From contig CAZADH010000002.1 in the NCBI GenBank assembly GCA_964483805.1, positions 1,163 through 65,162 of the forward strand: a stretch of 64,000 nucleotides of DNA. Reading direction: 5' to 3'. The position numbers and the translations under genes were made by a program. Below the pieces are notes generated by a model. It worked only from the letters and a program-made list of their open reading frames with translations. It was not told the origin of the DNA and ran no database searches. Shown here in pieces: positions 35,002 through 59,552 of this stretch. Within the stretch, counting starts at the first letter, position 1. Each line of letters starts with the position of its first letter. The stretch is from an uncultured bacterium. GTDB taxonomy: Bacteria > Muiribacteriota > Ozemobacteria > Ozemobacterales > Ozemobacteraceae.

Positions 35002-35025
35002 CAATACAATATATTACAAATCAGG
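35002..35025. repeat. conserved AT-rich element CAATACAATATATTACAAATCAGG overlapping the HAD gene stop codon
   Basis: 22/24 identical (one indel) to 59529-59552 and related to 58144-58162. In all three cases the TCA of AATCAG is the stop codon (TGA) of a minus-strand gene. Confidence 0.45.
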
Positions 35026-35671
35026 ACCAGAGCGCGCGCACCCGGGCCGCAATCTTGTCGTGGTCGGTGACCTGCCAGGCCCAGAGGTGCTGCCGACGGC
35101 CCTCGGCAACATAATCGGGAATGTCGTCGAGGTAGAGAATGTGCTCGGGGGCCATGCCTGCCTGGGCGATGGCGTCGTGATAGATGGCCGGGTCTGGTTT
35201 CATCGCGCCCACACGGTGCGACATCGTCAGTTGGTTGAACCAGCGCAACGCCGGGTTGGTGCGGATCTCGAGACGTTCGTGCAGGGCATTGGTGTTCGAC
35301 AGCAAGCCGATGCGGCAACGGGGTGCCAGCCACTCGACCAACGCCGTCATGACCTCGGAACGCACGAAGATGCCGGCAAAGGCCTCGTCAAAGAGAGCAC
35401 AATCGAGCGGAATGCCGAGAATGTCGCACACCCGTTGGCGGAAAACGGCCTCGTCGAGTTCGCCCCGCTCAAACTCGGAGGCCAACGCCGTATGCGCGTA
35501 GAGTTGCCGCCACGCGACCTCCGGATCGCGCGGGGAGCCGGCGAGCAGGCGGCGGATGAAGCGACGGTTGTCGAACCAGGCCATGACGTTGCCGTAATCG
35601 AACAACACCAGGCGGGGTCGCCACCCCGCCGGCGCAACCGGACCGTTCTGTGCAAAAGCAACCGTGTTCAT
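35021..35671 (-). CDS. HAD family hydrolase (HAD-IA-like)
   Basis: LVLFDYGNVM (motif I DxG/N), LLSNTN and YLDDIPDYV motifs. Start taken at ATG 35671. Confidence 0.7.
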   Translation of the reverse strand: MNTVAFAQNGPVAPAGWRPRLVLFDYGNVMAWFDNRRFIRRLLAGSPRDPEVAWRQLYAHTALASEFERGELDEAVFRQRVCDILGIPLDCALFDEAFAGIFVRSEVMTALVEWLAPRCRIGLLSNTNALHERLEIRTNPALRWFNQLTMSHRVGAMKPDPAIYHDAIAQAGMAPEHILYLDDIPDYVAEGRRQHLWAWQVTDHDKIAARVRALWS

Positions 35672-35704
35672 GCGGCGGCATGATACCATGACCCGGGATC
35701 AACC

Positions 35705-36172
35705 ATGGCCAACTTCTCAGTATTCAAAGCGATCGTGCGCGAACAACTGCGCAAGATTCCGCGCCGGTTTCGGCGCGGCGTGCATGGCTTTCGCGTCGAA
35801 CGACGCGCCAAGCGGCAGCCCGGCTCGTTGTCGGGGCTCTACATTCTCGGCACGTATCACACCGACGCCGACCATCTCGGGCCCGTAGTTACATTGTATT
35901 ACGGTTCGTTTCGCCGCGTTTTCCCCGAGGCGACGCTGCGCCTGGTGCGCCGCGAGGTGGCCAAGACCATTGCCCACGAACTGCTGCACCACTGGGAACT
36001 GCAAGCCGGACGCGACCTGCTCGGTGACGAAGACCGCCTGCAGTTAGCGCGCTGGCGCCGCCGCATGGGTCTGGCCGGCGATACGATCACCGGGCGCAGC
36101 GTCCTCGAGGCGCTCACCTTCATCTATTGCCTGCTGTTGATCCTGGCTTTCGTCGCCGCACTCGCCAATTGA
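35705..36172 (+). CDS. minimal zincin-like metallopeptidase family protein (HExxH, COG3824-like)
   Basis: AHELLHHWEL HExxH motif in a ~150-aa protein with a C-terminal hydrophobic tail. Confidence 0.65.
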   Translation: MANFSVFKAIVREQLRKIPRRFRRGVHGFRVERRAKRQPGSLSGLYILGTYHTDADHLGPVVTLYYGSFRRVFPEATLRLVRREVAKTIAHELLHHWELQAGRDLLGDEDRLQLARWRRRMGLAGDTITGRSVLEALTFIYCLLLILAFVAALAN

Positions 36173-36174
36173 CA

Positions 36175-36202
36175 ACGCCGCGGCCTGACTGCGCCGCGGC
36201 GT
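36175..36202. terminator. 10-bp perfect GC hairpin (ACGCCGCGGC / GCCGCGGCGT, 8-nt loop) between convergent genes
   Basis: Immediately after the TGA at 36170-36172 and 24 nt from the GH1 stop. No strong U-tract. Confidence 0.4.
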
Positions 36203-36225
36203 GATCGACGACGAGCGAAGAACGA

Positions 36226-37653: not shown

Positions 37654-37838
37654 GGCTGTTCTCCAGAATCGTGCTGTTCTTCGCGGGGTCGACACACCAA
37701 TACTTAATGTGGCCGTGTCGAACCGCACCGATGGGATTATACCCGACAGACCGGTACCCCCTGCAAGAGTGAGAGAACGAGTTACCGTTCCGAACCCCTT
37801 GTACTGCGACCAGCGAGGTCGTAAAATGAACCCGAACC

Positions 37839-38789
37839 ATGAAACCGCACGATGACATGAGCCCAGACCCAACCGAAACCGAGCCCGTCCCAACGGACCG
37901 GCCGCCCGAGCCCGTGCGGCATCCGCGCACCGGCGACTCCACACCCGACCCCACAACCGAAGCGCTGTTGGGTGCGGTCGATCGCGGTGGTCTCGGACGG
38001 CACGGCGCCCGTCTGATCGTCGGGCTCGCCGCTTCCGGCCGAACGCTGTTCACCCTCGACGAGATCCACCGCCGCAGCGGGTTGCACCCGCGGCACTGCG
38101 AGTCATTGTTGCGTGGGCTCGTTGAGCGCGGGTGGCTGCGCCGGGTACGCAAGGGCCTGTATGCGCTCATCCCCATCGACATCGTCGATGCCCGACAGTG
38201 GTCGCCGGACCCCGTGTTGGTTGCCGCCCATCTGTTCAGCCATGCCACCTTGTCGCACGGCACGGCGCTGCTCATTCATGGCCTGACACTTCAGGGCCGG
38301 CCAATGTTCCCCTACACGGTCGTCAGCCCGATGCGCCAGGCCGATGTGATGATCGACCAGAACCAATACCATGCCGTCTACCGCCCGGCGGAAGCCGCGT
38401 TCGGCGCGATGGACCTCTTTCACAGCGGCACCCTCGTGCGGGTCACCGACCTCGAACGCACGTTCTGCGACGTTCTCCTCGAACCCGATCACTGTGGCGG
38501 CATCTGGGAAGCCATGCGTGCTTTTGGACAACTGCACGACCGGCTCGACTTCGAACGCCTCGATGAATATGTACAACGTATTGATCGCCGGGTGTTGTGC
38601 AAGCGCCTTGGTTACACCTGCGAACTGTTCGGGGTGTTCGGGCCCTGGCTAGACCGCTGGCATGCGCGTGTCGATGCCAACTACAACCTGCTCGATCCGA
38701 CCGGGCAGGTGCGGGGCCTCACCCATCCGCGCTGGCGTTTGCGCATCAACATCAACCCGCGCTACCTCGAAACCCTGGCGCGGCGATGA
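37839..38789 (+). CDS. AbiEi-like wHTH domain protein (type IV TA antitoxin / transcriptional regulator-like)
   Basis: LFTLDEIHRRSGLHPRHCESLLRGLVERGWLRRVRKGLYALIP matches the AbiEi_4 N-terminal wHTH. Acidic/Pro-rich N-terminal extension; the start is uncertain. Confidence 0.6.
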   Translation: MKPHDDMSPDPTETEPVPTDRPPEPVRHPRTGDSTPDPTTEALLGAVDRGGLGRHGARLIVGLAASGRTLFTLDEIHRRSGLHPRHCESLLRGLVERGWLRRVRKGLYALIPIDIVDARQWSPDPVLVAAHLFSHATLSHGTALLIHGLTLQGRPMFPYTVVSPMRQADVMIDQNQYHAVYRPAEAAFGAMDLFHSGTLVRVTDLERTFCDVLLEPDHCGGIWEAMRAFGQLHDRLDFERLDEYVQRIDRRVLCKRLGYTCELFGVFGPWLDRWHARVDANYNLLDPTGQVRGLTHPRWRLRININPRYLETLARR

Positions 38790-39769: not shown

Positions 39770-39894
39770 ATGAAGCAATACATTTTCCATACAATGGCAA
39801 CACGTCTTCGGTCATTGATTCGTCAGGTCGAAGCAATCCTCCCCGTTCAATAAACACGAAATCGCCGACAACATTCCTCGTCCCCCTTGGCAGC

Positions 39895-42800
39895 ATGAGG
39901 TGCTTTTGGTACACTGACCCGGCCGCGGTTGCGTGCCGCCGCGTTGTCCGTCGCTTCCCGTGCGGCAAACCCTATGACAACTGCGGTCGATTGTTCGGGA
40001 AAGGCTCTGGTCATCCGCCATTGACTAAGTTCTCCGCCACGACGCACGACACGACCTTGCCGCTCTCGCGCGACTGCCGTCTGAGAAAACAGCAGTTCGG
40101 GGCGACGCGAGATGGGGCTTCTTGCGCGGCTGCCGGGCCGCACTCTGCGGGTTTCGCGAGACTCTGCCGCGGTTGGTTGCTGCCGGTTCTTGTCGCCCTT
40201 GTCTTGGTCCCTGTCGGCTGGGCACAGAGCGCCTCACCGGCGGCCAACGTTGTCGCCGGCACCCCGGCCGGGGCCTCCGCCCCCACGGTTTCGCCAGTGA
40301 CAGCCATGGCCTCGACCACGCCCCTCGCGACGCCGGCAGCCGTTGTTTCAGCCACCGCCACGGCGATCAGTGCTGCATCCACGGTGGCGGTTTCCAGCGA
40401 AACCGCCGAGACCGACCCCGAATTTGCGACGGCCTCGGCCTCGGTCCGCGGTGCGACGCGCAACGACGAAGACGACGACGCATCGGCATCGGCAACGATC
40501 GCCTCGCCGACCCGCACGCAACCAACGATCCTGCCCGACGGACGCAAAGTCTGGCCGGGTGATCCGGGGCCGCTGCCCGAAGACGGAGCCGTGGGCGGAA
40601 TCCCGGGTGATGCCCCACCAAGCACATCGCCGCTGCCTGTCCCCGAACCGGCGCCAGTCGCCACCGGGTCAGCCCGACCGTTTGACCCGGGCACCGCCCG
40701 CTGGGTCAAACCGCTTGGGAAACCGGGTTCCGAACCGGGATTGCCGGCCTCGGGGTCCGCAATGCCGCGCCTGGGGTCCGATGCCGAAGTGCTGTTGCCC
40801 CTGCCCGAGGTGCCTCTGGCCACGGGCAGTGCCGGTTACGAAGTCCCGCTCGCCACCGGCCTGCCCCGCCCCCCGCAGGCCCCGATGGCAACGGTGGCGT
40901 CGCTGACCACCGAGCCGCCGGTCGACGACGAGACCGATGCAGCATCAGGAACGGCCAATGCGAGCGGTACCCGTTCGGCGAGAGGCCGAGGCAAGAAGGG
41001 CGGTAAAGAGACCGACGTCGAAGACCCGGCACTGATCAAGGCGCAGCACGAGCGCAACAAAAGCGAGATCATGGCCTTCCTGCGCGAAACGCCAACGCGC
41101 GAGCCGGGAGAACGCTGGTTGTTCCTGGCGAAATACTGCGCCGACCTGGATGATCCCGATGGAGCCCGTGAACTGCTGCGACGCGTCGTGCGGGCGGTGC
41201 CGGTCGCCGCCGAGCGCAAATGGGAAGCGCAGTTGTTGCTGGCCGAGATTCTCGAGAAACAGAAGATGTATGCCGAGGCGCTCAAAGAGCTCGAGCGCCT
41301 GCTGTCATGGCAACCCCAACGTCAATACAAAGTGCGCGCTGAACTGGCTCGCGCCCGTCTGTTCTCACGCGATCTTACCCATTTTTCTGATCTGCTCAAA
41401 GCCTACCGGCGGTATCACGCGTGGTTCCCCGACGCCAACGAACCCGAAGAACTCGTCTATTTCAGCGGCTTCGAGAAGGGATACAACCTCGAGATCGCCA
41501 TCCACGCCATCGAGGCCTGGGAGAAGATCGCATCGTTTCCCGAGCTGCCGGCCGCCAACGAAGCCCGGCTGCAACTGGCGATCATCGAGGGTTACGACCT
41601 GGGGCGGGCCCGCCAGGCCCTGACCCTGTTGTCGCGCATCGGTCCCCCGTATAAAGACGCCGCCGAAATCCGCTCACTGCTGGTGCGCGGAGCAATACAA
41701 CATCTGCACATTCAGCCACCGGCCGATCCCAAGGTGGCGCTCGCGGCATATCGCGAGTATCTCGCCCGCGAAACCGACATCGACGGTTGGCGCACCGGTC
41801 AGATGCTGCTGGGCGACCTGTTGCGCGACCGGTTGAACGACCCGCGCGAAGCGGTCGATGTGTTTCTGGGTCTGACACAGATCCCGCCGCACCTGGCGAC
41901 CGAATCGTTGCGGTCACTCAAGCGCGCCCGCGAACGGGCCGACGACGATCGGGCCTGGGCGCTTCTGGGCTACAAGATGGCCGGGCACTGTGCGGAGTTC
42001 AACGCCCACGATCTCGACCGCGCGTTGATGACCTACCGTCAGGGGATCGAACTGGCGCGGGCGACCGTGGCATCCGGCACCAAAGATGACGGCACGGTGT
42101 TCTGGTTCGAAACGGCGATCGCCCGCACCGAGCCCAAGACCAGCAAGGCGCAGGCCCTGTTCGATCAAGCCGTCGAGCGGTATCGGTCACGCGATCTCGA
42201 AGGCGGGGTCCGGTTGTTCGACCAGTTCGTCGCCAGTCACCCCGACCATTTGCTGCGCCGCGAGGCGATGTTCCGCGCCGTGCAGATCGTCGACGACGAC
42301 CTGCATCGGTTCGACGACGCTCTGGCGCGCTACCAGCGCTACCTGATCGAGGTCAGTCCGCGCAAGTCGAAGTGGCAGCTCGACGCCATCTACGACTGGG
42401 GTCGCGCCGATGAAGCCCGCTACCGCATCGGCAACCTGTTGGCCCGCCACCGTTCCGAATTCGTGAAGGCGCTCAAGACCTTCGCCGACCTCTCGGCCGC
42501 GTATCCCGACAGTTTCTGGGCCAAGCAGGGCGTCGTCGACTCGATCGAAATCTACCAGAAGCGGCTCGATGACGAGAACCGTGCCCGTGAATTCATGCGC
42601 CAGTACATCGATCGGTGGCCGAACGACAAGAAGTCGCAGGATTACCGACGCTACCTGGCCAAGGCGCTGATCGCTCAGGGGTTGGCCGGCCAGGCGATGG
42701 GGCTGCTGCAAGATCTCATCGACCACGGCTCGCCGACCGACAAGGAGTCGGTGGCAACGCGGCAGTTGTTGCGTGACCTGTCGTTCTCGCAGCAGAAAGA

Positions 42801-45800
42801 CCGGCTCCAGGCGATGCTCGGGGCGGCCGGCAATCGCGATCGTCCGTTGTTGTATGCGAATCTCATCGATATCCTCACGTTGGCCACCTCGACCGCGGCG
42901 CTCGACGAACTCGGGCGCCAGATCCGCCAGGCCGACAACCTGAACGACGCCACCCGCTGGGGCCTGATGTATCGCCTGGGCACCCGCCTGTACGCCATGG
43001 ACCCGAGCAAATCCCGCGAGGTGTTCGCCGAACTGGCCGCCAGCGCCTCGGGAACGACCCGGCTCAAGTGCCTGTTGACGCTGGGCAACATCGCCTACCG
43101 CGTCGAGAAGAACCAGGCCGAAGCCATCAAGGCCTACGAGGCTGCGTTGGCCATGGCCCCGCTCGATCCGCTGCTCGAAACGCCGACGTACCGCCTGGGT
43201 CGTCTCTACGCATGCCGGGGCGAAGGCGTGTTGGCCATCACCACGCTGAATCAGTTCATCCAGCGATTCCCGCTCAGTCGCCACCTGGCGAAGGCCTACC
43301 TCGCGCGCGGCCAGATCGAACTGGCGTTGCACCGGCCCGACCTGGCCGAACGCTCGGTGCGGCGGGCCCTCACCCTCGACCCGCCACTGGCCGAAAAGGC
43401 CAAAGACCTGGTCACACAAATCGAAAAGGCCATGCCGGTCGATCGCTGGCTCGCGGCACGGCGACGGACCCTCGAGGCGCGCCAACTCGAGCAACACGAT
43501 GTATTTATGGCCAGTCTGACCCTGGCCATGACCGCAACCGGAACCTCCCGTGTTCCCGTCCCCGGATGGCGCGAACCCGAGCAATTGCGGGCCCGGGCCG
43601 CTCTGTTGTCGGGGCATGTCGGTTCCGAGACCGGTTCGGCGGCCGGTGACGAACGGTCAGGAGCCACCGCGAGCGGCGCCGAACTGCTCGATGTCGAAAC
43701 GCTGTCGCCGACCGAGATTTATCAGCGTTTTCAGGCCGAGGCGATCAAGGCCAAGCCCGCTCCACAGGTCGGCGCCGAACTGTTGTTGACCCTCCTGCGC
43801 CGCTCACCACGCGAACAACCGCAACTGTGGCAAAAGGCCCTGCGGCAATACATCAGTTGGCGACTCTGGCGGCGGCCCGATCAAGCCGCCTTCGTTAAAG
43901 AGGTCGCGGCGCTGCTCGAACGCCACAACTACAGCGAAGATGTTGCCGAACTGGCCTACCGGCACGGCGCCGTACTCGATCGCGTCTTGCAGCGCTTCGA
44001 GCAGGCGAACAAGTCGTATTTCCAGTATCTCTCCTTCTATCCGAAAGGAGCGCGGGTGAAGCTCGTGCGTGCCCGCATTCCGCAGGTCTACGAGGAACTG
44101 AACGACACCAAATCGGCGAAGCGTTTCTACCAGAAGGTCGTCGACGATCCGCAGATGGGCGACGAACTGCGCGTCGATGCCTCGGTCCGCCTGGGCCGCA
44201 TGATGGCCAAGAGCGACGGCGAGTCGGGGCGCGCCGATATCCAGAAGCTGCTCGAATCCGCGCTGGCACTCGACACACCACGACGGCCCGAACTGTATCT
44301 GCGGCTCGAGAAGCTCACCTCAAACCAGGAGTACGTCGAGCGTGCGCTCGAAGCGAAAGGCGCCGAGCCCTTCCGGCTGCTGGCGTTGAAGCGACTGGTC
44401 AAAAAAGCCGAAGAGAAAGATTTCGACAAAGCGCTCGAACTGGTCGAGAAATACAAATCATCATTCAGCGAAGACGATTCCGTCATCTGGCTCGACAAGA
44501 AACTGAGCGATCTGGCCAAGCGCGGGCAGATCAGCAAGATCGAGGACCAGATCGAACAGTTCCCCGAAGAGGCCCAGACCCCGCAGCGGATCTTCCAGTT
44601 GGCCAACCTCATCGAAGGCCTCGAAAACACCCGCTATCGCTCGCAAGACCTGTTCTACGAAATCACCCTGGTCTACCCACACTCGCAGTATTACCGCGAG
44701 AGCAAGATCCGCGCCGAGAACACCCGGGCCATCGAGGCGGTGCATGCCTTGAGTGCGGCGTTGAAGAAGGGTGTGCAGGGAGCGGACGGCGACTCGTTGT
44801 TGCTCGAGCGCGCGCGCATCTATGCGACCAAGCTGCAAGACGACAGCAAGGCCCAGGAAGACTGCGAAGCCGTGTTGACGCTGTTCCCGAACTCACCGCG
44901 GCGCTGGGAAGCAATGCGGGGCCTGGGCGACGCCATTCTGCGTGCGGAGCGCAACGCGGAGCGCGCGCTGCGGTATTACGAGCAGGCGCTGGCCGCATGT
45001 CCGGATGCCGAGGAACGCGGCAAGCTGACGGCCAAGGTCGACGCGCTCGTCGAGTTTCGCGACAAGGTGCTCGTTGCCGATGGTGATGTGAAGGCCCAAC
45101 AGACGGGCCTCGACCACATCCTCGCGGTCTGGCGCCTCGACCTCGAACCGGAACGGGCGCTCGCGCTGATCCAACAGGCGCGCACGGTGCTCGAGAACAA
45201 GCCGCTCGCCGCCCGCCTGTGGTATCTCGAAGGCCGCCTGCTCGAACAGTCGGGCAAAAAGGCCGCTGCGTTGCTCGCCTATCGCAATGTGGTCGACAGC
45301 ATCGCCAACCCTGGAGCCCGCAAGGATGTCGCCTGGTATCGCATGATGCGCCTGCATCTCGAAGCCGGCGATCGCAGCGCCGCCGAGAAAGACGCCATTG
45401 CGCTGACCACGCGGTATCCGCGCTCGCTGATGGCCCGCAGCGCCTGGTATCGCCTGGCCTGTTGGCGTGAGGAAGCCAAGGATCTGAGCGGGGCGCACGC
45501 GGCACTCGACCGGTTGTTGTCGTACCGGGCGCTGATCCCGACCCACCGCACGCACCTGACCAAGAAACAAGCCGACATCGAGGCGCGCATGAACCTCGAA
45601 GACCTCGATCGGTTGCGTGCCGCCAGCAAGGTGCAGAACAATTTCCGCTATCTGGCCGCCCGCCTGCTCGAGAACGACCAACGCGATTCCGAGCGGGCCA
45701 TGGCGGAGTATCAGGCCTATCTCGCCACCCGCCCGGGCGTCGCCCGTTCGCGCGAAATCCTGATGAAACTGGCCACGATGGCCGAACGCAAGGGCGATTA

Positions 45801-46902: not shown

Positions 46903-48279
46903 GTGCTGCGCGGCAACGACATGATCCAGTTGTTGGAACGCAAAGACCGCTTCGTCATTGACTGGGCGGTGGCTGTGTTGCGCGAAATCGGGCCGGAGCC
47001 GCATCCGCTCGAATCGGAACTGGTCGAGGTCATCAAAGGCACGGCCCTGCCTCTGACCCTCGCCGCCCTGTTGCCGGTCTTGCGTGACGAGAAGAACCCG
47101 CAATCGTTGCGTGACAAAGTGATGGCCAATTTGGTCGAGCGTGACCGGTTGATGCTGCGCTTGATCAACGCGTGCACGCGGGCCAGCCAACGTGAGCGAC
47201 TTCTCAATCCGCTCGCCGCCATGATGGTCGACGCGACCAGCGACATTGCCTGCTTCTCGGCGCTGATCCGGTTGCTCCTCGGGCATCGTGAATCGCGCGA
47301 ACGCCTGCTCGCCGGCTTCGACAGCCTGTCGCGCATCCAGCGTTGGAACGTCGTGGTCAGTCTGGAAGCGACCGGCGATCTGCAGTATCTGTCGTTGTTC
47401 ATTTCGGCCCTCGAAGACAGCGAACCCACGGTCGTGCAGGTGGCGGTGAAAGCCCTGGGGCGTCTGGGCGCCCACGCGGCAATCGACGAGATCATCGGCA
47501 AGCTCACCCATCCGCGCGAAGAGGTTGTGCTCAGCGCCGTGCGCACGCTCAGCGAGTTTCGTGACTCGCGCGCCACGCTGCCGCTCATGAAGCTGATGGC
47601 CGGCACGCGCAGCCATCGCGTCCGCGCCACGGTCATCGCCGCTCTGGGCGGCTTCGCAGAAACACGGACTATTCCGGTAATAACCCGGTATCTCGCCCAC
47701 GGTGACGAGCGGGTGCGTGCGAACGCCGTCTCGGCAATCAGCCAGAAGATGCTGGCCACGGGCAAGCAAGATCCAGAGATCATCAACCGCATTCGCGAAA
47801 TGCTCGGCGATCCCAACCATCGGGTGCGCGCCGATGTCATCAGCAGTCTGTGGCAACTGGGCCAGATCGACAGTCTGACCGAAATCACCAAGATGGCGGC
47901 CTCGACCAACGACGAAGAACGGGCGGCCGGCGCCTATCTGGTCGGGCGCCTCAAGCTTCTGCAGTTCAAAGAGATGCTGATCGGTCTGACCGGCGATCCG
48001 GTGTGGTCGGTGCGCAAACTGGCAGCATTGTCATTGTTGTCGCTTGGCGATGCGGGCAAAGCGGTGTTGAAGGGGTTGTTGTCGCAGGGCGATGAACGCC
48101 AGCGCCTGGTCGCCGCCTTCGCGCTGTCGATGGGCGGTTATCCCGACGCGCACGGCCTGTTGCTGTGGGCCTCGCGCCAGGGCGGCAGCGACGGCGCCCT
48201 CGCCACCCAGTTGTTGAGCCAGTTGTCAGGCACGCCCGTGGGTGCGGTCGCGGCGGGTGACATCGAATCCGACGGTTGA
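46903..48279 (+). CDS. HEAT (PBS-lyase-type) repeat protein
   Basis: Repeats ..VRANAVSAISQ.., ..VRADVISSLWQLG.., ..VRKLAALSLLSLGD... GTG start with GGGAGG SD 4 nt upstream. Confidence 0.75.
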   Translation: MLRGNDMIQLLERKDRFVIDWAVAVLREIGPEPHPLESELVEVIKGTALPLTLAALLPVLRDEKNPQSLRDKVMANLVERDRLMLRLINACTRASQRERLLNPLAAMMVDATSDIACFSALIRLLLGHRESRERLLAGFDSLSRIQRWNVVVSLEATGDLQYLSLFISALEDSEPTVVQVAVKALGRLGAHAAIDEIIGKLTHPREEVVLSAVRTLSEFRDSRATLPLMKLMAGTRSHRVRATVIAALGGFAETRTIPVITRYLAHGDERVRANAVSAISQKMLATGKQDPEIINRIREMLGDPNHRVRADVISSLWQLGQIDSLTEITKMAASTNDEERAAGAYLVGRLKLLQFKEMLIGLTGDPVWSVRKLAALSLLSLGDAGKAVLKGLLSQGDERQRLVAAFALSMGGYPDAHGLLLWASRQGGSDGALATQLLSQLSGTPVGAVAAGDIESDG

Positions 48280-51211
48280 CCCCACCCCGTTGACCGGCGA
48301 CGCCCACAGTTCTGCAGCCCCCCCCAAGGCGTTGCCCCCGTCTGTTCCAGACGACGGCGCGGGACACCGGTCACGCTGGCTGACCGTGCTCATCGGCTGG
48401 ACCATCGTCTACTGCTCGCTCGTGATCACGCCGGCGGTGATGTGCTATATTGTATTTACATCTGCCGCCGCCACTCGCTTCAATAGCCGGCTTGACGACG
48501 TGCGGCGCGACCTGGCGGTGCGCGGCGATCGTCTCGTGGCGCGCTGTGAGCGCGAGAAGGTCGTGGTGGGTCTCGTCGAGGGCCTGAACCGTCGCGGCAT
48601 CGCCGGTTTCCTGGCCAGGGCCCAGACCTGGCAGCGCCATCACCCGGGAGCGATGCGTTGGATCGCCTGGGATCGCACGGGAACGCTGCTCAAGATGCCC
48701 GACGAGTTGTCGGTGAACGGCAAACGTGCCTGGCAGGAGGTCGTACGCAAGATCTGGCATCCCGATGCCGGCAGCCGCACGACGGTGGCCGAGCGCGCCC
48801 AAGTCGTCGCGGGTTTGCAGCGGTTCCTTGGTCGGCGTCCGGTGGCCGGCACGCTGGTCGAGTCACCCCGGCGCCTGATCTCGACGGTCATCCTCGATCG
48901 GCCCTGTTGGTTCGTCTGGGCGCACCACCGGCCAGCACCCCACACGCAACCCGCACCAGTCGGCGATCCGCTCGGGGGGATTCTGCTGCAGGTCTTTCCT
49001 GAGAAACTGCCGGCCCAGTTCTGGATCGATCCGGTCTTGCGCCTGGCCGCGCGCGACCATGCCGACCGCCAGCCTCCGTTCGTCATGTTCGATCTGTGCG
49101 AACCGTGGCGCAATGTGGTGTCACCGTCGTTGGCCCGTCTTTCGCAGGGTTTCGTGCCCACGTTGCGCCGACGTTTTCTCGAGCGCAGCAGCGAACTGAT
49201 CCAGGTCGGTTCCTACATTGCTGTCCCGGTTTCGCTCGACGCGGCGGGCGACACCCCGCAGCGGCTGCTGGTGCTCGCCGACATCGCCGACCTGTACCTG
49301 GAGCGAGCCACCGCCGAGCGCCGATCCGGCCACCTCTTGCTGCTCTTCCTCGTCGCCACAGCAGCCGGTGGAGCATACTGGGGGCGAAGCGGCGGTCACG
49401 GGGTGTCGCTGCGGTTGCGGGTGGTGCTGTTGTTTGGCGCCGCCGTGTTGTTGCCCACGCTCGGCCTGGTCGTCGGCGGCGCCCAGCTCGTCCGGTGGGA
49501 GGACCACAGCGAACGGGCCGTCGCCATCGACATGCTGCAACAGTCGGCGCTGCGGCTGAACGCTCGCGGCTACATGTATTTCGAAGAATACGGCGAACGG
49601 GTCCGGGAGCGCCTGGTCGCCCGCATTACCGGGCTCACCCGGGAACAGGATCTGCTCGCCGCCCTGCGCACGGCCATGCGCCAGGGCCTGGGGTCGAGTT
49701 TCTTCGTTTCCAGACTCGATGGGGGATTGTGGACATCGGGAGGCCGCCGCCTTGCCTCGGGCCCTCTCGAAATGCTGCGTTTCGCCATGCGTCGCGAACA
49801 CAACGAGGACGTCAATCTGCTCGCCCAGAGCGTCGTTTCGCCGCCGGGGCAGAAAGCCGACGTGCCATGGGTGCCCCTGACCGCAACCGCGGGAGCGGTG
49901 GTGTCTCGCATCAACGCCGTGCGCATGCTGCGCCTGGGCGATGCGGAATACGCGGTATTGAAGATGGCCGTCACCATCAACTTCCGCACCCGCCTGGTCA
50001 TCGTGGTATTCGATCCCCACGACCTCGAACTCGATCTGGCGGCCCGTGCCAGTCTGAGTATGCGCCGGCGCGAACTGCGCTCGCCAACCGCGCTCGCGCC
50101 GCGGGTCCATTTCGTGGCGGCAACACCGATCGGCGGCTGTTCCTGGCTCAACGCCTCGCTCGGTCGCCAACCGGCGGTCGCCCGGGCCGTTGCCCTCGAA
50201 AACGAGACGGTGGGCCTCATCGACTGGGCCGGTGAGACTCAACTGTTCTTCGTGCCGGCCCGCGAGACGCGGGCGGTGTTGCGCCCCATCTGGTTGTTGC
50301 CCGACCGCGGCATCCGCGCACGCATGGAGCGGCGGTGGCAGTTGATCGTGCGCACCGCAGCGTTGACTTCGGTGGGCGCGATTGCGCTGGCGTTGGCGCT
50401 CGCGGCCGGCGTTCTCGGGCCGGTTCGCCGCCTCGACCAGGCCGTCGCCGCCGTCCGCGCCGGCGATCTGCACTCCCGGGTCGACGGCGTCACCCGCGAC
50501 GAGATGGGGATCCTGGCCATGGCCTTCAACGACATGGTCGGCCGGTTGCGCGAACGGGAGCGGATGAAGGCCTACGTCTCGGCCACGGTCCTGGCAGCCG
50601 TCCGCGACGACACCGTGTCGCGCGGCGCGAGTGCACGTTCGGCACGCGTCACCGTGCTGTTCTCGCACATCGCCGCTTTTTCCCAGATCGCCCGCACCTG
50701 GACCCCGGAGGCTGTGTTTTCCATGCTCAACAGCTACTTCGCCGGCGTCGAACCGGTCGTGCGTGAGCAGGGCGGCGACATCGACAAGTTCATCGGTGAC
50801 GCGGTCATGGCCAGGTTTTTTGGTGACGGTCAGGAACGGCAGGCGGTCAATGCCGCACTGGCAATGCGCCGGCACTTGAATACATACAACGTAAGTCGCC
50901 AACAGGCCGGGTTGCCCGCAATCAACATCGGGATCGGGATCAACACAGGGGAGGTCATGCTCGGCGATGTCGGCAGCCGCAACCGCAAAGACCTGACCGT
51001 CATCGGCGACGCCGTCAACCTTGCCGCCCGCCTCGAGGTAGTGGCGCATCAGGGCACGCACACGCGCATCGTCGTCTCGGCAGAAACGGCCGGACAGCTC
51101 GAACCGTCGCTGCGACTGGTCGAGTTGGCGGTCACCACGGTCAAGGGCAAAGACCGCCCCGTGCAGGTATTCGAAGTGGTCGGGCCGACCGACGCGCAGG
51201 TGCCCCAGTGA
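48242..51211 (+). CDS. membrane sensor class III nucleotidyl cyclase (cyc3); His replaces first metal-binding Asp
   Basis: HAMP (FNDMVGRLRERERMKAY) followed by VLFSHIAAFSQ ... IDKFIGDAVMA ... TVIGDAVNLAARLE. Start uncertain: the track GTG at 48242 overlaps the HEAT gene by 38 nt, and alternative TTG starts lie at 48290 and 48332. Confidence 0.8.
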   Translation: MRSRRVTSNPTVDPTPLTGDAHSSAAPPKALPPSVPDDGAGHRSRWLTVLIGWTIVYCSLVITPAVMCYIVFTSAAATRFNSRLDDVRRDLAVRGDRLVARCEREKVVVGLVEGLNRRGIAGFLARAQTWQRHHPGAMRWIAWDRTGTLLKMPDELSVNGKRAWQEVVRKIWHPDAGSRTTVAERAQVVAGLQRFLGRRPVAGTLVESPRRLISTVILDRPCWFVWAHHRPAPHTQPAPVGDPLGGILLQVFPEKLPAQFWIDPVLRLAARDHADRQPPFVMFDLCEPWRNVVSPSLARLSQGFVPTLRRRFLERSSELIQVGSYIAVPVSLDAAGDTPQRLLVLADIADLYLERATAERRSGHLLLLFLVATAAGGAYWGRSGGHGVSLRLRVVLLFGAAVLLPTLGLVVGGAQLVRWEDHSERAVAIDMLQQSALRLNARGYMYFEEYGERVRERLVARITGLTREQDLLAALRTAMRQGLGSSFFVSRLDGGLWTSGGRRLASGPLEMLRFAMRREHNEDVNLLAQSVVSPPGQKADVPWVPLTATAGAVVSRINAVRMLRLGDAEYAVLKMAVTINFRTRLVIVVFDPHDLELDLAARASLSMRRRELRSPTALAPRVHFVAATPIGGCSWLNASLGRQPAVARAVALENETVGLIDWAGETQLFFVPARETRAVLRPIWLLPDRGIRARMERRWQLIVRTAALTSVGAIALALALAAGVLGPVRRLDQAVAAVRAGDLHSRVDGVTRDEMGILAMAFNDMVGRLRERERMKAYVSATVLAAVRDDTVSRGASARSARVTVLFSHIAAFSQIARTWTPEAVFSMLNSYFAGVEPVVREQGGDIDKFIGDAVMARFFGDGQERQAVNAALAMRRHLNTYNVSRQQAGLPAINIGIGINTGEVMLGDVGSRNRKDLTVIGDAVNLAARLEVVAHQGTHTRIVVSAETAGQLEPSLRLVELAVTTVKGKDRPVQVFEVVGPTDAQVPQ

Positions 51212-54051
51212 CCCGCAACGACAAGACCGAACCGGCAAGAGTGCCGCTCTGGCAATGGTTTGTCTTGTATCTGCTCGTTGTTGCCCTGCCGTCGTGGATG
51301 GTCGCCGACTATTTCCGGGCGTTGTTTGCCGAACAGGCTGAGACCCGCAGCCAGATGGCCGCAGCCAAGCTTTCGGTCGATGCGGCGGCCGCCGCGCACT
51401 TCTTCCGCTCGTCGTTTCTGCTCGAGTCGCTCCTGACCCGCTCTGCCTGGCCCGAGGCGCGTTGGCCGCAGTTTGTCGAGGCGCTCGAACGTCGCTACCC
51501 AGGTGCCTTTCGCTGGATTCTCTACGACCGATCGCAGCAGATTATCCCCATCGTCCCGACGGCACGCCTGCCCGGCGGCCCGGGGTTGTGGCATCGGGTC
51601 GTGTCGAGTTACGCCATCGCTTCCATGTCGTTCTACCGGTTGCTCGACGCCCGCCTTGGCACCGATCCGCTTCTGGGCGAAGTGCAGCGCGCGCTCGGCC
51701 CCGGTTTTCGGTTCGAGAACCTTCTCTCGACTTCCAGGGGCGTGCTGTACGGCCCCTGGGAAGGCGAACCTGCCGTCATGGCCTGGTGGCAGGATGGTCG
51801 CGATGCGGCTGACAACATCGTGGATCGCGGCCGCTTGCGCGGGTTTTTCGCGGTCATGCGCCCCGGGCGCCTGCCGCCGTTGCTGCCGATGCGCCTCATC
51901 GTCAGGGGCCACGCCGCGGGCATGCGGCGATCGACCTCATCGTTGGTGGCGATCGACCCCGCCGACCCCCGCCGCTTCTACACCCATCCCACTGTTCCGC
52001 GCGAACCGGCCCTGGGCGAACGGCTCTGGACCGCCCATCGCCACCGCACCGCCGACGTTTTCCGCGTCGATCATTGGCTCGCCACCGCCGTGCCCATCCG
52101 CGAGGCCATGGCCGGCAGGGTTTTTCTCCTGCACGACCTGGCCCCCGGGGAACGGCAGTATCAATGGCAATACAACATATTGATGGTCATCCTGTTCGCC
52201 GTGCAAGCCATCGGCGTGCTGTTGCTGCTCTCCTGCTGGCGCCGCGGGGGGCTCGAACTCGGCCTGCGTTGGCGCATCATGAGTGCCCTCTCGCTGGCCA
52301 TGTTGCTGCCGCTCGGCGGCCTGTATCAACTGGGCGAGCGGATGGTGGCGCGCGAGTATCAGGTCCGCCGCGAACAACTGGCGGCCGGTTTGAGCCGGGA
52401 CCTGGCCTTGGTCATGCCACGGTATCGGGACTTCAGCAGTCGGTATGGCGCCGCTCTGCTGGCCTCACTGACACGCGCTGTGGCCGGCCCGTTGTCGGAG
52501 CGGGAGATCAGCACCCGTTTGCAGCGGTTCGTCAGCCGACCGGCCCACCAGGTTTCCGATTTTTACCTGAGCGACGCCCGAGGACGACTGGCCCGCAGCG
52601 GCCGCGAACAGTCAGACCGGCGGTTCAAGACCATTGCCCAGATCATGTTGTCGGGCGTCTTGCGCGACAATGGCGGCCCCACCGAGTCTTCGGCTTTCAA
52701 CGAGAGCATGCTCGAAACCGTGGCCGAGGTCGCCGAGAAAGACCGCCGCATGGACCAGTCGCTGCTGCGGGTAAACGAGTGGGGCCTGCACATGTTCATG
52801 CGCGACTCGCGCTACATCATTGCCCTGCTGCCCCGGGTCGACGGCACCATGCGATCGTTGCTCGTGCCGGTGAATCCGGCACTGGTGAAGGTTCGCTTTG
52901 CCAATCGCGAGTTCGTGCGCGGACTGACGCCGGAGTTGCAGGCCGTCGGGCTGAGCCGGGCGAACTTCACCTCGGACCAGTGGGGGCACATTCCCGCCGT
53001 GCCGGCCTTCTGGCAGAACGGCGAGATTCGCCAGGCCCTCGAAGATCGGCGGACGCAGCGCGCCGGCGAGTTCACGCTCAACAACGGCCGCTTCCTCTAC
53101 CAGACCGGCGCGCGGACCGCGTTGTTTCCTTACATTTTCGTGGGCGTGGCCCCCCTCGACCCGGTCGCGGCCGAGGTCAATCGACACGCATGGGCGTTTC
53201 GGGGTGCGGCCCTCTTTGTCACCGGCCTGGTGGGCGTTCTCGGCTGGTTATTGGCCGCCGGCCTGCTCGCGCCGATCCGTCGCCTCGAAGTAGCGGTGCG
53301 CCAGGTCGCCGCGGGCAACCTCGACGTCGAGGTGGCCGTGGTGGGCCGTGACGAGATTGGTCGCCTGGCCGAGAATTTCAACGACATGTTCCGCGGTCTG
53401 CGCGAGCGCGAGCGCATGCAGGCCTATGTGTCTCCGGCTGTCCTCGAGGCGGTGCGCGACGACGCCACCGCGGCGGGCCAGCAGGCGCGAACCTGCGAGG
53501 CGACGGTGTTCGTTGCCGATATCCGCTCGTTTACGACCCTGTCGGAGAAACATGGACCGCAAGCGATGTTCGCGATGCTCAACGAGTACATGACGGGGGT
53601 CGAGGCGTTGCTTCGCGAGCATGGCGGACGCATCGACAAGTTCATCGGGGACGCCGTCCTGGCGGTGTTTCTCGACCCAGGTCGTGCGGGCGCCCTCGAG
53701 GCGGTGCGGGCAGCATGGGCCGTCACCCGGTTCGTCGCCGAGTTCAGCACCCGCCGGCAACGGGCCGGGTTGTTCGGGGTGGGCGTCGGGGTCGGCATCA
53801 CCACCGGCCGCGTCCTGGTGGGCACGGTCGGCAGCGCAACCCGCAAAGATCTGGCCGTGATTGGTGACGAGGTCGAGCGGGCCGCGCAACTCGAAGCCGC
53901 CTCGAAACAGGGGCGTCACTCGCGCATCATTCTCTCGCCGGCCACCCACGACCTGGTCAAGGATGTAACTCGTTGTATTTCTCTTGCTCCCTCTCACGCC
54001 CGCGATGCCGACCTCGTCGCTTTCGAAGTGGTCGAAGCGCCAAGCGCTTGA
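51208..54051 (+). CDS. membrane sensor class III nucleotidyl cyclase (cyc4); Asps intact, Asn/Arg replaced
   Basis: GTG 51208 overlaps the TGA of cyc3 (GTGA). HAMP (FNDMFRGLRERERMQAY), then VFVADIRSFTTLSE ... IDKFIGDAVLAVF ... VIGDEVERAAQLEAA. Confidence 0.8.
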   Translation: MTRNDKTEPARVPLWQWFVLYLLVVALPSWMVADYFRALFAEQAETRSQMAAAKLSVDAAAAAHFFRSSFLLESLLTRSAWPEARWPQFVEALERRYPGAFRWILYDRSQQIIPIVPTARLPGGPGLWHRVVSSYAIASMSFYRLLDARLGTDPLLGEVQRALGPGFRFENLLSTSRGVLYGPWEGEPAVMAWWQDGRDAADNIVDRGRLRGFFAVMRPGRLPPLLPMRLIVRGHAAGMRRSTSSLVAIDPADPRRFYTHPTVPREPALGERLWTAHRHRTADVFRVDHWLATAVPIREAMAGRVFLLHDLAPGERQYQWQYNILMVILFAVQAIGVLLLLSCWRRGGLELGLRWRIMSALSLAMLLPLGGLYQLGERMVAREYQVRREQLAAGLSRDLALVMPRYRDFSSRYGAALLASLTRAVAGPLSEREISTRLQRFVSRPAHQVSDFYLSDARGRLARSGREQSDRRFKTIAQIMLSGVLRDNGGPTESSAFNESMLETVAEVAEKDRRMDQSLLRVNEWGLHMFMRDSRYIIALLPRVDGTMRSLLVPVNPALVKVRFANREFVRGLTPELQAVGLSRANFTSDQWGHIPAVPAFWQNGEIRQALEDRRTQRAGEFTLNNGRFLYQTGARTALFPYIFVGVAPLDPVAAEVNRHAWAFRGAALFVTGLVGVLGWLLAAGLLAPIRRLEVAVRQVAAGNLDVEVAVVGRDEIGRLAENFNDMFRGLRERERMQAYVSPAVLEAVRDDATAAGQQARTCEATVFVADIRSFTTLSEKHGPQAMFAMLNEYMTGVEALLREHGGRIDKFIGDAVLAVFLDPGRAGALEAVRAAWAVTRFVAEFSTRRQRAGLFGVGVGVGITTGRVLVGTVGSATRKDLAVIGDEVERAAQLEAASKQGRHSRIILSPATHDLVKDVTRCISLAPSHARDADLVAFEVVEAPSA

Positions 54052-54175
54052 TGCATGCGCGACTGCCGTAGAGTCATCCGCCCGCACACAACAGGCCCCA
54101 ACGCCTGCGCAGCTCCTTGATATTGCTTCTGTATTTATCGTATCCTGGCCATCATCCACACCCGGGGAGGCTCTT

Positions 54176-55200: not shown

Positions 55201-55232
55201 CGCTGGCCGCTGCCGGCCCGGCGGTATGTCGC

Positions 55233-56966: not shown

Positions 56967-57004
56967 GTTCGTCTACCGTGTTGCACGCGATACGCAGAAG
57001 CTGT

Positions 57005-58102
57005 TCACAACCGCCCCCGCTGCATGTTGAATGAATCGAGGCGGTAGTGAGGGACAAACAGCTCTTTGAAGGTCGCCATGGCAAACCCATCGGTCATGCT
57101 GGCCAGATGATCGACGACCGTTCGCCAGACCGGGGTGTCCGGCGCCACCGGGTGATGCAACCGGGTCAGCAGGCGTTCGGGTTTGCTCATAAAATACTGG
57201 GCCATCTGCCGCAACAACACCCGGCTCTTTTCGATCTCGTCTTCGATTTCGTGGCGGGTGTAGACCTTCTCGTAGAGAAATGCCCGCAACTCCTCGGCGG
57301 CATCGGCCACCGGCTTGCTCAAGGCAATTGCCGGCTTGCCCCAGCTTTCGAGAATGATGTCTTTGACCATGCCGTGAATACGTTGTGAGTTGCGCTCGCC
57401 CAGAAGCGTCACCGGGCCTGCCGGCAAGTCGCTCAGACTGATCAAACCCGCCCGCACCGCATCGTCGATATCGTGATTGATATAGGCCACGAGGTCGGCC
57501 AGGCGGACCACCTGGGCCTCGAGCGTCAACGGGGCTTCGGCAGCGCCGCTGAGCAGCAACGGCCCGGACCGCCCCTTGCTGTGCTTCAGAATGCCGTCGA
57601 CCACCTCGGCGGTCAGGTTGAGGCCCGCACCGTTCTTTTCGAGGTGCCGCACCACGCGCACGCTGTGGACGGCGTGGTGAAACCCTTCGGGCGAAAGCTC
57701 ACCCAGCACCTGCTCACCAGCATGCCCGAACGGGGTGTGCCCCAGATCGTGCCCGAAGGCGATGGCCTCGGTGAGATCTTCGTTGAGCCGCAGCCCACGG
57801 GCAATCGTGCGCGCGATCTGGGCCACCTCGAGGGTGTGCGTCAGGCGGGTGCGAAAGTGATCGTTGCGTGGAGCCAGGAACACCTGGGTCTTGTGCTTCA
57901 ACCGCCGAAACGCCTCGCTGTGCAGGATCCGATCGCGATCGCGTTGAAAACAGGTGCGATAGAAGCAATCGCGCTCCGGCCGGTCGCGCCCGCGCGACGC
58001 CTGGCTCTTGCAGGCGAACGGCGACAGAAACGCCGTTTCCTGGTCCTCGAGCATACGTCGTATGACGTCGCCTTCGGGTCGCTTCACTTCGTGTTCGCTC
58101 AT
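57005..58102 (-). CDS. dGTP triphosphohydrolase-like HD domain protein
   Basis: HD motifs RLTHTLEVAQIAR, FGHDLGHTPFGH and ADLVAYINHDIDD. Confidence 0.8.
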   Translation of the reverse strand: MSEHEVKRPEGDVIRRMLEDQETAFLSPFACKSQASRGRDRPERDCFYRTCFQRDRDRILHSEAFRRLKHKTQVFLAPRNDHFRTRLTHTLEVAQIARTIARGLRLNEDLTEAIAFGHDLGHTPFGHAGEQVLGELSPEGFHHAVHSVRVVRHLEKNGAGLNLTAEVVDGILKHSKGRSGPLLLSGAAEAPLTLEAQVVRLADLVAYINHDIDDAVRAGLISLSDLPAGPVTLLGERNSQRIHGMVKDIILESWGKPAIALSKPVADAAEELRAFLYEKVYTRHEIEDEIEKSRVLLRQMAQYFMSKPERLLTRLHHPVAPDTPVWRTVVDHLASMTDGFAMATFKELFVPHYRLDSFNMQRGRL

Positions 58103-58143
58103 TAACCTGGTCTCCGGCTGCTGCGCCGGTCACACCCACATGT

Positions 58144-58162
58144 CAATACAACAGCAATCAGG
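58144..58162. repeat. CAATACAACAGCAATCAGG element overlapping the thymidine phosphorylase stop codon
   Basis: Shares CAATACAA and AATCAGG with the 35002 and 59529 elements. Its reverse complement with flank shares ATCGTATCCTG plus ATTGCTnnTGTATT with 54122-54147. Confidence 0.4.
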
Positions 58163-59465
58163 ATACGATATCGAGCACCAGCGGCAGCGGTTTGCTCTCG
58201 CGGTCTTCGATGACGAACGATGCCGTCAGCGCCTCGATGGCGCGGCGGTTGTCACGCTTCGGGTCCAGGTGCAACTCGGCGAGGGGTTCACCCTGGGCCA
58301 CCTTATGGCCAACGTGGCGCACGAGCTTCATGCCCACCGCCGGATCAATGATGCTGTCTTTGGTTTCGCGCCCGGCCCCGAGCATCATCGCCGCAATGCC
58401 GACCTGCTCGCACTCGATGCGGGTGATGTAACCGCTGCGGGGCGACGGCAGCGGTTCGACCTTCGTCGCCGCCGGCAGGCGCTCGGGGTGGCGGATCAAT
58501 TCGGGGTCACCGCCCTGCGCTTCGACCATTTCACACAACTTTTGGAACGCCGAACCATCGCTGATGGTTTTCTCGACGCGGGCTTTGGCCTCGGCTGCCG
58601 AGATCTTGCCCCCCGCCGACAACCGCAGTGCTTCGCCGGCCAGCGTGCTCACGAGATCGACGAGATCGCGCGGCCCCTTGCCCTGAAGGGTGGCGATCGC
58701 CTCTTTTACCTCGAGGGCGTTGCCGATCATTTCGCCCAGCGGTTCGTCCATGTTTGACAGCACCGCGACGCACTGGCGCCCCGACTGCTTGCCGATGGCA
58801 ACCATCGCCTGCGCCAGTGCCTTCGCGTCGGCCTGGGTCTTCATGAATGCCCCACTGCCCACCTTCACATCGAGAACGAGACCGTTGTTGGGAACCGTGA
58901 GCTTCTTCGACATGATCGAAGCCGCAATGAGCGGAATCGAGTCGACGGTCGCCGTGACATCACGCAAGGCGTAGATCTTTTTGTCGGCCGGCACGAGATT
59001 GCCGGTCTGACCGACGATGGCCACGCCAATGCGGTTGACCACGGCGATGAACTTGTCGACCGGCAACTCGCAGGTGAACCCTTTGATCGACTCGAGCTTG
59101 TCGATGGTTCCGCCGGTATGCCCAAGCCCGCGGCCCGACATCTTCGCCACTTTCAAACCGAGTGCGGCAAGAATCGGCCCCAACACGAGACTGGTCTTGT
59201 CACCGACACCCCCGGTCGAATGCTTGTCGACCGTGAACCCCTCGATGCCCTTCAACTCCACCTGATCGCCCGACCGGCGCATGGCGTCGGTCAACCAGAA
59301 GGTTTCCTCGGCATCCATGCCTTTGAAGTAGATGGCCATGAGCATCGCCGCCATCTGATAATCAGGCAGCGTCCCTTTGACGTAACCCTCGACCAGAGCG
59401 TCGATTTCGGCCGCCGTCAGTTTGACACCATCGCGCTTCTTTTTGATCAGATCGTACGGACGCAT
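58158..59465 (-). CDS. thymidine / pyrimidine-nucleoside phosphorylase
   Basis: Full-length match to family features (MRPYDLIKKKRDG..., HSTGGVGDKTSLVLGPILAALG, GRGLGHTGGTIDKLE). AAGGAG SD 8 nt before ATG 59465. Confidence 0.9.
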   Translation of the reverse strand: MRPYDLIKKKRDGVKLTAAEIDALVEGYVKGTLPDYQMAAMLMAIYFKGMDAEETFWLTDAMRRSGDQVELKGIEGFTVDKHSTGGVGDKTSLVLGPILAALGLKVAKMSGRGLGHTGGTIDKLESIKGFTCELPVDKFIAVVNRIGVAIVGQTGNLVPADKKIYALRDVTATVDSIPLIAASIMSKKLTVPNNGLVLDVKVGSGAFMKTQADAKALAQAMVAIGKQSGRQCVAVLSNMDEPLGEMIGNALEVKEAIATLQGKGPRDLVDLVSTLAGEALRLSAGGKISAAEAKARVEKTISDGSAFQKLCEMVEAQGGDPELIRHPERLPAATKVEPLPSPRSGYITRIECEQVGIAAMMLGAGRETKDSIIDPAVGMKLVRHVGHKVAQGEPLAELHLDPKRDNRRAIEALTASFVIEDRESKPLPLVLDIVS

Positions 59466-59528
59466 GCTTCGGCTCCTTGCTTCGCAGTCGACATGGTCAG
59501 CCCACAGGGAGGGCGGCGGGAACAAGAG

Positions 59529-59552
59529 CAATACAGAATATTACAGAATCAG
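59529..59552. repeat. CAATACAGAATATTACAGAATCAG element overlapping the small-ORF stop codon
   Basis: Near-identical to 35002-35025. Lies in the 83-bp gap between the small ORF and thymidine phosphorylase. Confidence 0.45.

Follow-up and report, generated by a model that had tools for sequence, protein, structure and literature searches.

What is the short AT-rich string that follows the stop codons of three minus-strand genes in this GC-rich stretch of chromosome, an element dedicated to gene ends or one form of something more widespread? The stretch, here called the window, is 64 kb of contig CAZADH010000002.1 from one metagenome-assembled genome (MAG; GCA_964483805.1) of the Riflebacteria (Ozemobacteraceae-like); its GC content is 63%, and 5.6% of it is intergenic. 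A preliminary description had presented the strings as a conserved 3'-flank element. Our analysis indicates, with a probability that we put at roughly 0.65, that they represent intergenic copies of a chromosomal DNA word built on TGTATT, which is hyper-abundant and specific to the lineage, and not a dedicated gene-end element. All statistics on this word refer to the one window.

The three strings are present exactly as reported (copies 1 to 3 in Table 1), and each begins within the TGA stop codon of its gene, which encodes a HAD-family hydrolase, a 63-amino-acid (aa) Cys-rich open reading frame (ORF) product and a pyrimidine-nucleoside (thymidine) phosphorylase, respectively. Copy 2 lies inside the 83-nt spacer 5' of the phosphorylase ATG (59465) and copy 3 inside the 55-nt spacer 5' of the ATG (58102) of an HD-hydrolase gene. 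The first two strings had been described as 22/24 identical; in fact, an alignment with one gap gives 21 matches in 26 columns, or 20 in 23 up to TGTATTG. Neither has an additional copy at ≤3 mismatches in the 64-kb window. The statement that all three strings end in an over-represented word was correct as far as the word is concerned, with TTGTATTG occurring 14 times compared with 0.30 in dinucleotide-preserving shuffles, but the second string contains CTGTATTG, not TTGTATTG.

By k-mer statistics, TGTATT was observed 44 times (5.0 expected), TTGTATT 23 times (1.1 expected), TTGTATTG 14 times (0.4 expected), TTGTATTGC 9 times (0.14 expected) and TGTATTGCT 8 times (0.08 expected). The 35- to 47-fold excess of the 8-mer is above the at least 15-fold, beyond codon usage, that marks a word like the cyanobacterial highly iterated palindrome HIP1, and the 8-mer was still ~9-fold over a null that preserves codon usage. 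The core, TGTATT, is sharp and usually takes the form (T)TGTATTG(C). Variants of TTGTATTG with a single change at positions 2 to 7 were no more frequent than expected (12 observed, 12.3 expected), in contrast to the exact word, and deviations were confined to the first and last bases. The recognized sequence may be longer than 9 nt (GTATTGCTTCAT). A literature search for the TTGTATTG 8-mer returned primer sequences alone.

The word also occurs in a paired form. AATA-N5-TATT (z = 37) and ATAC-N3-GTAT (z = 34) ranked highest among all combinations of two 4-mers and a gap. ATAC-N3-GTAT was found 10 times, compared with 0.01 in shuffles, and every other spacing occurred at most once. A partner half-site stood at gap 3 for 19.6% of GTATT sites, compared with 0 to 4% (background) at other gaps. 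GTATT sites fall into two populations: ~80% are solitary and occur in either orientation, and ~20% form head-to-head dyads, (GC)AATAC-N3-GTATT(GC). As matches to a gap-3 partner were bimodal, the solitary half-sites are not degenerate dyads. For the full 17-bp dyad, GCAATAC-N3-GTATTGC, 16 sites with at least 11/14 matches were detected, both long gene-end copies among them, compared with none in the reversed sequence of the window. A scan of IMG/VR for the perfect dyad, GCAATACNNNGTATTGC, gave at least 120 single chance matches and no GC-rich multi-copy contig. Separately, ATGAA(GC)AATAC occurs five times in the window.

Most copies lie in coding sequence (12 of 14 for TTGTATTG and 39 of 44 for TGTATT). 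The 12 coding TTGTATTG copies, 5 sense and 7 antisense (7 and 7 when the 2 intergenic copies are included), are distributed across 10 genes of unrelated families. Genes bearing the word encode adenylate cyclases, a SpoIIE-type phosphatase, an amylase-family enzyme, a metallophosphoesterase, NadA, two ABC transporters and a 2,305-aa TPR protein, and the coding copies are read as xTT-GTA-TTG, GCA-ATA-CAA, xxC-AAT-ACA-Axx or CAA-TAC-AAx. When synonymous codons were shuffled within each gene (500 runs), 1.36 copies of TTGTATTG were expected (maximum, 4) where 12 were observed, and 0.58 palindromes where 10 were observed. These copies draw heavily on rare codons, used where the amino acid is conserved: 36% of the GTA and 25% of the ATA codons in the window fall within GTATT/AATAC. 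Because the copies occur in unrelated genes, in sense and antisense orientation, in several frames and against codon bias, the excess acts on double-stranded DNA and not on RNA or protein.

Coding copies arose by synonymous substitution. At codons 14 to 17 of the HD-hydrolase gene, eight relatives encode I/L-R-R-x as ATC CGC CGC xxG, and the window encodes I-R-R-M as ATA CGA CGT ATG, which forms ATAC-GAC-GTAT; likewise, GAC ATC GTC at the C terminus of the phosphorylase is GAT ATC GTA in the window. As three simultaneous synonymous changes keep I-R-R-M, errors in sequencing or in consensus calling at a methylated motif were ruled out. Two 16-mers each occur twice in identical form, in unrelated genes and different frames (ATACGATGTATTTCAT at 19245-19260 and 23812-23827; ACTTTGTATTGACGTT at 22050-22065 and 41320-41335). 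Paralogy among the cyclase genes was ruled out as the source of the copies by those in the NadA, ABC-transporter, amylase, phosphoesterase, SpoIIE-phosphatase and TPR genes. The window contains five paralogous membrane adenylate/guanylate cyclase genes (3315-6764, 6665-10303, 48242-51211, 51208-54051 and 60968-62998), with HAMP domains in four and CHASE2 in one, and two tandem pairs have overlapping or ambiguous starts. The gene for the TPR-repeat protein (39895-46812, plus strand) holds five TGTATT copies, four of them antisense.

The gene order of Cys-rich ORF, phosphorylase, HD hydrolase and methyl-accepting chemotaxis protein (MCP) is kept in 36 Riflebacteria loci. The two corresponding spacers in these loci are short and contain a ribosome-binding site only, and none carries the element. 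In the closest relative (L081; 74% identity), the spacer measures 84 nt, compared with 83 nt in the window, and is GC-rich where the window has the word. Conservation of the 3' flank was therefore not borne out, as the strings are without counterpart in the orthologous spacers of both the 36 syntenic loci and this relative. No AATAC-N3-GTATT was found in the Riflebacteria loci L001-L037 and L081-L086, and when five GC-rich Riflebacteria loci (L001, L002, L004, L006 and L007) were each tested, none had an excess of TTGTATTG. The window phosphorylase is ≤74% identical to any other in the collections, L081 being the closest, and the best match in the species-representative collection is 71% identical. 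The Cys-rich ORF (MAVPQAKMPKCFGTD...CYDCEAYDRCYQ...; 59549-59740, minus strand) is without Pfam or NCBIfam match; it is located directly 5' of the phosphorylase gene in the 36 loci, within a four-gene block that also includes the HD/HD_assoc hydrolase and the MCP.

A different iterated dyad, ATAT-N8-ATAT, was found in the sister Ozemobacteraceae clade (L001, L002, L003, L082, L083 and L084-L086), whose phosphorylases are 70 to 71% identical to that of the window and whose loci are 79 to 90% identical to one another at the nucleotide level. It occurs at 6 sites (L001:8050-21029) in 21.3 kb of L001, compared with 0.01 in shuffles. These sites recur at orthologous coding positions across the clade, while neighboring synonymous positions vary; in the aligned block, 3/3 sites recur across ~79% nucleotide identity, although this is a small sample. 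The dyad is built from the rare TAT, ATA and AAT codons; the counterparts in L004, L007 and the window are TAC, ATC and AAC. No comparable dyad was found in GC-rich loci of other phyla or in the L004-L007 group. Iterated words are thus recurrent in the Ozemobacteraceae, with the word itself specific to the lineage.

Several observations weigh against reading the three strings as instances of a general word. Sense copies of TGTATTG lie ≤40 nt downstream of stop codons five times, compared with 0.28 expected (6636, 35002, 58144, 59529 and 61039, two of which coincide with the start region of the following gene, where the start is ambiguous or the genes overlap). A sixth post-stop copy, at 39776, is antisense, and 4 of 20 TGTATTG are intergenic (binomial p = 0.02). 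Furthermore, both long copies share TGATT(c)TGTAATAT-N2-TGTATTG, and GTAAT-N5-GTATT occurs in the window only in these two, at a near-equal offset from the TGA stop, which a general word can explain only by relaxed constraint plus coincidence. The genome-wide spread of the word is extrapolated from 64 kb of one MAG, and no relative closer than 74% protein identity is available for comparing site conservation in the lineage of the window. No binding protein, methyltransferase, competence gene or GIY-YIG nuclease was found among the window genes. The systems that it most resembles also differ in form, as HIP1 is a simple octamer palindrome, which this word is not, and the fixed-spacing dyads present here are not seen in known uptake sequences. 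As intergenic DNA is without coding constraint, it would hold fuller versions of the word, and relaxed constraint in the spacers may be the reason that such versions were noticed just after stop codons. Ten proteins of the window, of which six lack a Pfam match, gave no match in NCBIfam.

The post-stop excess and the shared long form would also be expected of a dedicated intercistronic or 3'-flank regulatory element (terminator-associated, a processing site or an internal promoter), with the coding copies as unrelated background, as would the fact that all three GTAATAT words of the window are intergenic and that the copy at 54117-54146 overlaps a weak (9/12) promoter-like match. Nevertheless, we consider such an element unlikely. 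The orthologous spacers of the 36 syntenic loci and of the closest relative lack the word, offsets vary from 8 to 32 nt from stops and from 41 to 113 nt to the next starts, and the intergenic 39776 copy is antisense to both neighbors. Of the proposed association with gene ends, the excess of sense copies shortly after stops stands, but 75 to 89% of copies fall within coding sequence, half of these in antisense orientation. The suggested terminator or 3' untranslated region structure is limited to a hairpin beside the HAD copy. This flank (34940-35026; z = -4.18) was the only one of four to fold significantly better than shuffles (58100-58163, z = -0.14; 59463-59554, z = +0.34; fourth flank, z = +1.10), so that a GC-rich stem-loop with a U-tract is not common to the copies. 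Copy 1 abuts this strong GC-rich hairpin, which is a bidirectional terminator shared by convergent genes and separate from the motif; the other copies have no hairpin. Rfam and tRNA scans of the window gave no matches. An internal sigma-70 promoter is equally poorly matched, as no promoter-like site overlapped the copies at 35000 or 59530, no promoter or terminator signal was shared, the TG in TGTAATAT abuts TAATAT without the spacer base of an extended -10 sequence, and transcription started at the HAD copy would run into the convergent gene. Alternatively, the two long copies could be operators of an OmpR/PhoB-type response regulator, as both contain two 7-nt direct repeats, [C/T]TGTA[A/T]T, with 10-bp phasing, which we presume to resemble the Pho box CTGTCAT-N4-CTGTCAT. 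This is very doubtful with two instances only, one of them between convergent genes without a promoter to control; moreover, both copies also fit the genome-wide dyad (11/14 and 12/14), and neither is kept in relatives.

Other explanations address the word as a whole. A neutral context-dependent mutation or repair bias, with no binder or function, including the methylation-linked short-patch repair drive of Elhai for HIP1, would agree with the lineage specificity of the word and with its sharp core, in which deviations affect end bases only, as in HIP1 (PMC4390886). However, the exact N3 spacing of the dyads and the identical 16-mers in unrelated genes and frames are hard to obtain in this way, the AT-only core gives no 5-methylcytosine deamination route, and sister-clade sites persist across ~79% nucleotide identity while nearby synonymous sites vary. 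Selection has also been argued for HIP1 by Xu et al. (PMC5861425), and we find a neutral origin rather improbable. We give very little credence to a polar sequence of the Chi or KOPS type, read by a translocating recombination or segregation motor. An 8-mer that is G+T-rich (7/8 bases), mostly coding and present ~1 per 4.6 kb would suit such a role, and 14 of 20 TGTATTG lie on the minus strand, which the uniformly negative GC skew suggests to be the leading strand. Yet neither strand bias reaches significance (14:6 for TGTATTG, 21:13 for GTATTG, in a window without origin or terminus), polar sequences do not form fixed-spacing palindromes, and the word is enriched far more strongly than Chi is known to be. 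Hardly any weight attaches to remnants of a miniature mobile element, such as a repetitive extragenic palindrome (REP), a miniature inverted-repeat transposable element (MITE) or an NTS/dRS3-like hairpin repeat, a reading that is already largely refuted. The dyad symmetry and some intergenic copies are in its favor, and dRS3 (ATTCCC-N8-GGGAAT) is a known iterated dyad (PMC11893778). However, neither a longer unit nor a terminal repeat or target duplication was found in the window, where a repeat search recovered paralogous gene segments only and no element of ≥20 nt carrying the word; most copies are in-frame coding sequence derived from substitution and not an intergenic-only unit spread by insertion, and no RAYT or GIY-YIG gene is among the window genes.

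The preliminary description had also noted that the phosphorylase copy and the adjoining codons reappear at 54122-54147 with their halves swapped. The 12-mer TATCGTATCCTG is indeed common to 58159-58170 (minus strand) and 54136-54147 (plus strand), adjoining ATTGCT..TGTATT. Because 12-mer seeds give 147 inverted pairs in the window and ATCGTAT is part of the motif family, the rearrangement is statistically weak and probably coincidental; by a rough estimate, ~0.2 coincidences of this type are expected among motif-flanking regions. A recombination-associated repeat is the sole role originally offered for the strings that is still compatible with the data, and it is the loosest one.

Among known systems, HIP1 and its alternates show a 15- to 300-fold excess, are conserved within ORFs and vary among lineages (PMC5861425, PMC4390886, bioRxiv 10.1101/2024.09.10.611283), with one-nucleotide deviations concentrated at the first and last base (PMC4390886). 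Like HIP1 (GCGATCGC), the word described here is short, in tens- to hundreds-fold excess, mostly intragenic, imposed via codon choice and lineage-specific, with alternate words in related lineages and single-base deviations at the end bases. In contrast to the GC-rich, uninterrupted HIP1 palindrome, it is asymmetric, a half-site rich in AT within a genome of 63% GC, with ~20% of half-sites in interrupted N3 palindromes; it also belongs to a different phylum, and no methyltransferase domain was found in the 64-kb window. The DNA uptake sequences (DUS) of Neisseria and uptake signal sequences (USS) of Pasteurellaceae are likewise asymmetric 8- to 12-nt words in both orientations, mostly coding, in protein-tolerated frames and with clade "dialects." Additional copies of DUS and USS, as well as inverted pairs, occur immediately past the ends of genes. 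They are denser, however (~1 per kb, compared with ~1 per 2 to 5 kb here), and show a cloud of one-off variants and inverted pairs of variable spacing where the word has a sharp core and exact N3 pairing.

Other iterated sequences were also compared. The dRS3/NTS hairpin repeats are recognized by Ssn nucleases (PMC11893778). NTS are ~30 bp long, GC-rich, hairpin forming, intergenic and clustered at particular genes, whereas the word is shorter, AT-rich and mainly coding; Ssn is a GIY-YIG nuclease system, and no GIY-YIG gene was seen in the window. The matS site of MatP, GTGAC-N3-GTCAC, is found in coding sequence, is clade specific and resembles the 5-N3-5 palindrome seen here. However, matS/MatP, NBS/Noc and SBS/SlmA sites occur in tens of copies per genome, restricted to particular regions, compared with the far higher density of 10 palindromes plus many half-sites in 64 kb.

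Overall, the word acts at the level of DNA, independently of orientation, is specific to its lineage and has a strict hexamer core as well as a dyad form of exact spacing; by analogy, it is best read as an iterated recognition word of the HIP1/DUS/USS class. A sequence-specific protein that binds or processes DNA, as monomer or dimer, would recognize it, and selection or a conversion-type drive would maintain its abundance. By comparison with HIP1, for which the suggested roles are transformation, methylation-linked repair and nucleoid or chromosome structure (PMC5861425, PMC4390886, bioRxiv 10.1101/2024.09.10.611283), and with DUS and USS, it could serve as a "self" mark in uptake or recombination or in chromosome organization. 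A tentative extension, which we think possible but do not favor, is that GC-rich Ozemobacteraceae sublineages each keep their own AT-rich "barcode" (TGTATTG/AATAC-N3-GTATT versus ATAT-N8-ATAT), read by fast-evolving, sequence-specific proteins as a self-recognition signal in uptake, recombination or chromosome organization. If so, this would be the first HIP1/DUS-class system beyond the few known clades, with an unusual monomer plus fixed-spacing dimer form, and hundreds of genes would carry its words at the price of using rare codons.

Short words of such abundance, of which HIP1, DUS/USS and Chi are examples, are rare, and each has pointed to a basic DNA transaction; HIP1 is still without explanation after 30 years. 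The present word is an independent example from an uncultured phylum, AT-rich against a GC-rich background and against codon bias. The different word of the sister clade offers a comparative handle, as a gene that covaries with the word could reveal the reader protein and whether self DNA is marked in this way. For annotation, post-stop AT-rich patches in this genome should not be taken as evidence of promoters or terminators.

Table 1. Coordinates of the gene-end strings, their genes and further sites of the word in the window
Feature	Position	Strand	Context or remarks
HAD-family hydrolase gene	35021-35689	-	
Pyrimidine-nucleoside (thymidine) phosphorylase gene	58158-59465	-	
Copy 1: TGA stop + TTGTAATATATTGTATTG	34999-35023	-	HAD hydrolase stop
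Copy 1 as dyad TCAATAC-aat-ATATTAC	35001-35017	+	11/14 matches
Copy 2: TGA stop + CTGTAATATTCTGTATTGC	59526-59551	-	stop of 63-aa Cys-rich ORF
Copy 2 as dyad GCAATAC-aga-ATATTAC	59528-59544	+	12/14 matches
Copy 3: TGA stop + lone half-site TTGTATTGA	58141-58160	-	phosphorylase stop
GC-rich hairpin	34958-34991		between convergent 33999-34937 (+) and 35021-35689 (-); z = -4.18
ATTGCTTCTGTATTT + ATCGTATCCTG	54122-54147	+	intergenic, 29 nt 5' of 2-thiouracil desulfurase/DUF1722 gene start
Double copy TTGTATGGAAAATGTATTGCTTCAT	39770-39800	-	intergenic, directly after TAA stop of + gene; antisense to both neighbors
AATACA-gacga-TGTATTG	6636-6653	-	11 nt after TGA of cyclase 6665-10303, at junction with next cyclase
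Palindrome ATAC-cgt-GTAT	4464-4474		coding
Palindrome ATAC-gtt-GTAT	5691-5701		coding
Palindrome ATAC-ttt-GTAT, extended to TTGTATTG	9227-9239		coding
Palindrome ATAC-att-GTAT	11797-11807		coding
Palindrome ATAC-ttt-GTAT	13133-13143		coding
ATACGATGTATTTCAT	19245-19260	-	amylase-family gene
ATACGATGTATTTCAT	23812-23830	-	+ strand GAAATAC-atc-GTATTGC, best dyad of window (13/14)
Dyad GCAATAC-gtt-GTATTTT	30673-30689		coding, HEAT-repeat gene
Dyad GGAATAC-gcg-GTATTGA	49945-49961		coding, cyclase gene
Palindrome ATAC-gtc-GTAT	58053-58063		HD-hydrolase codons 14-17
TTGTATTG	7505-7512	-	coding, sense (GTT GTA TTG)
TTGTATTG	17165-17172	-	coding, antisense
TTGTATTG	19749-19756	+	coding, antisense (GCA ATA CAA)
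TTGTATTG within 16-mer ACTTTGTATTGACGTT	22055-22062	+	coding, sense
TTGTATTG	24101-24108	+	coding, antisense (NadA)
TTGTATTG	26353-26360	-	coding, sense (ABC transporter)
TTGTATTG	27753-27760	-	coding, sense (ABC transporter)
TTGTATTG within 16-mer ACTTTGTATTGACGTT	41323-41330	-	coding, antisense (TPR giant gene)
TTGTATTG	41693-41700	-	coding, antisense (TPR giant gene)
Dyad GCAATAC-aac-ATATTGA with TTGTATTG (-)	52167-52183		coding, antisense (cyclase gene)
TTGTATTG	61038-61045	+	N-terminal transmembrane segment of cyclase 60968-62998; 31 nt after stop of overlapping upstream gene

Elsewhere in the window, defense- or toxin-antitoxin-like genes are located at 595-3049 and 37839-38789 and encode a Uma2-family putative endonuclease, a protein with AAA-ATPase_like and PDDEXK_9 domains and an AbiEi-type antitoxin regulator; no link between these genes and the word was found in the window. 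Other over-represented words bear no relation to the TGTATT word, namely, GGCCATGGCC (10 observed, 0.9 expected), CTCGAG (156 observed, 60 expected) and CCTC|GAGG. A loopless inverted repeat of 28 + 28 nt with 96% complementarity (12048-12103), located between the convergent genes 11355-12065 (plus strand) and 12112-12573 (minus strand), is probably a bidirectional terminator.

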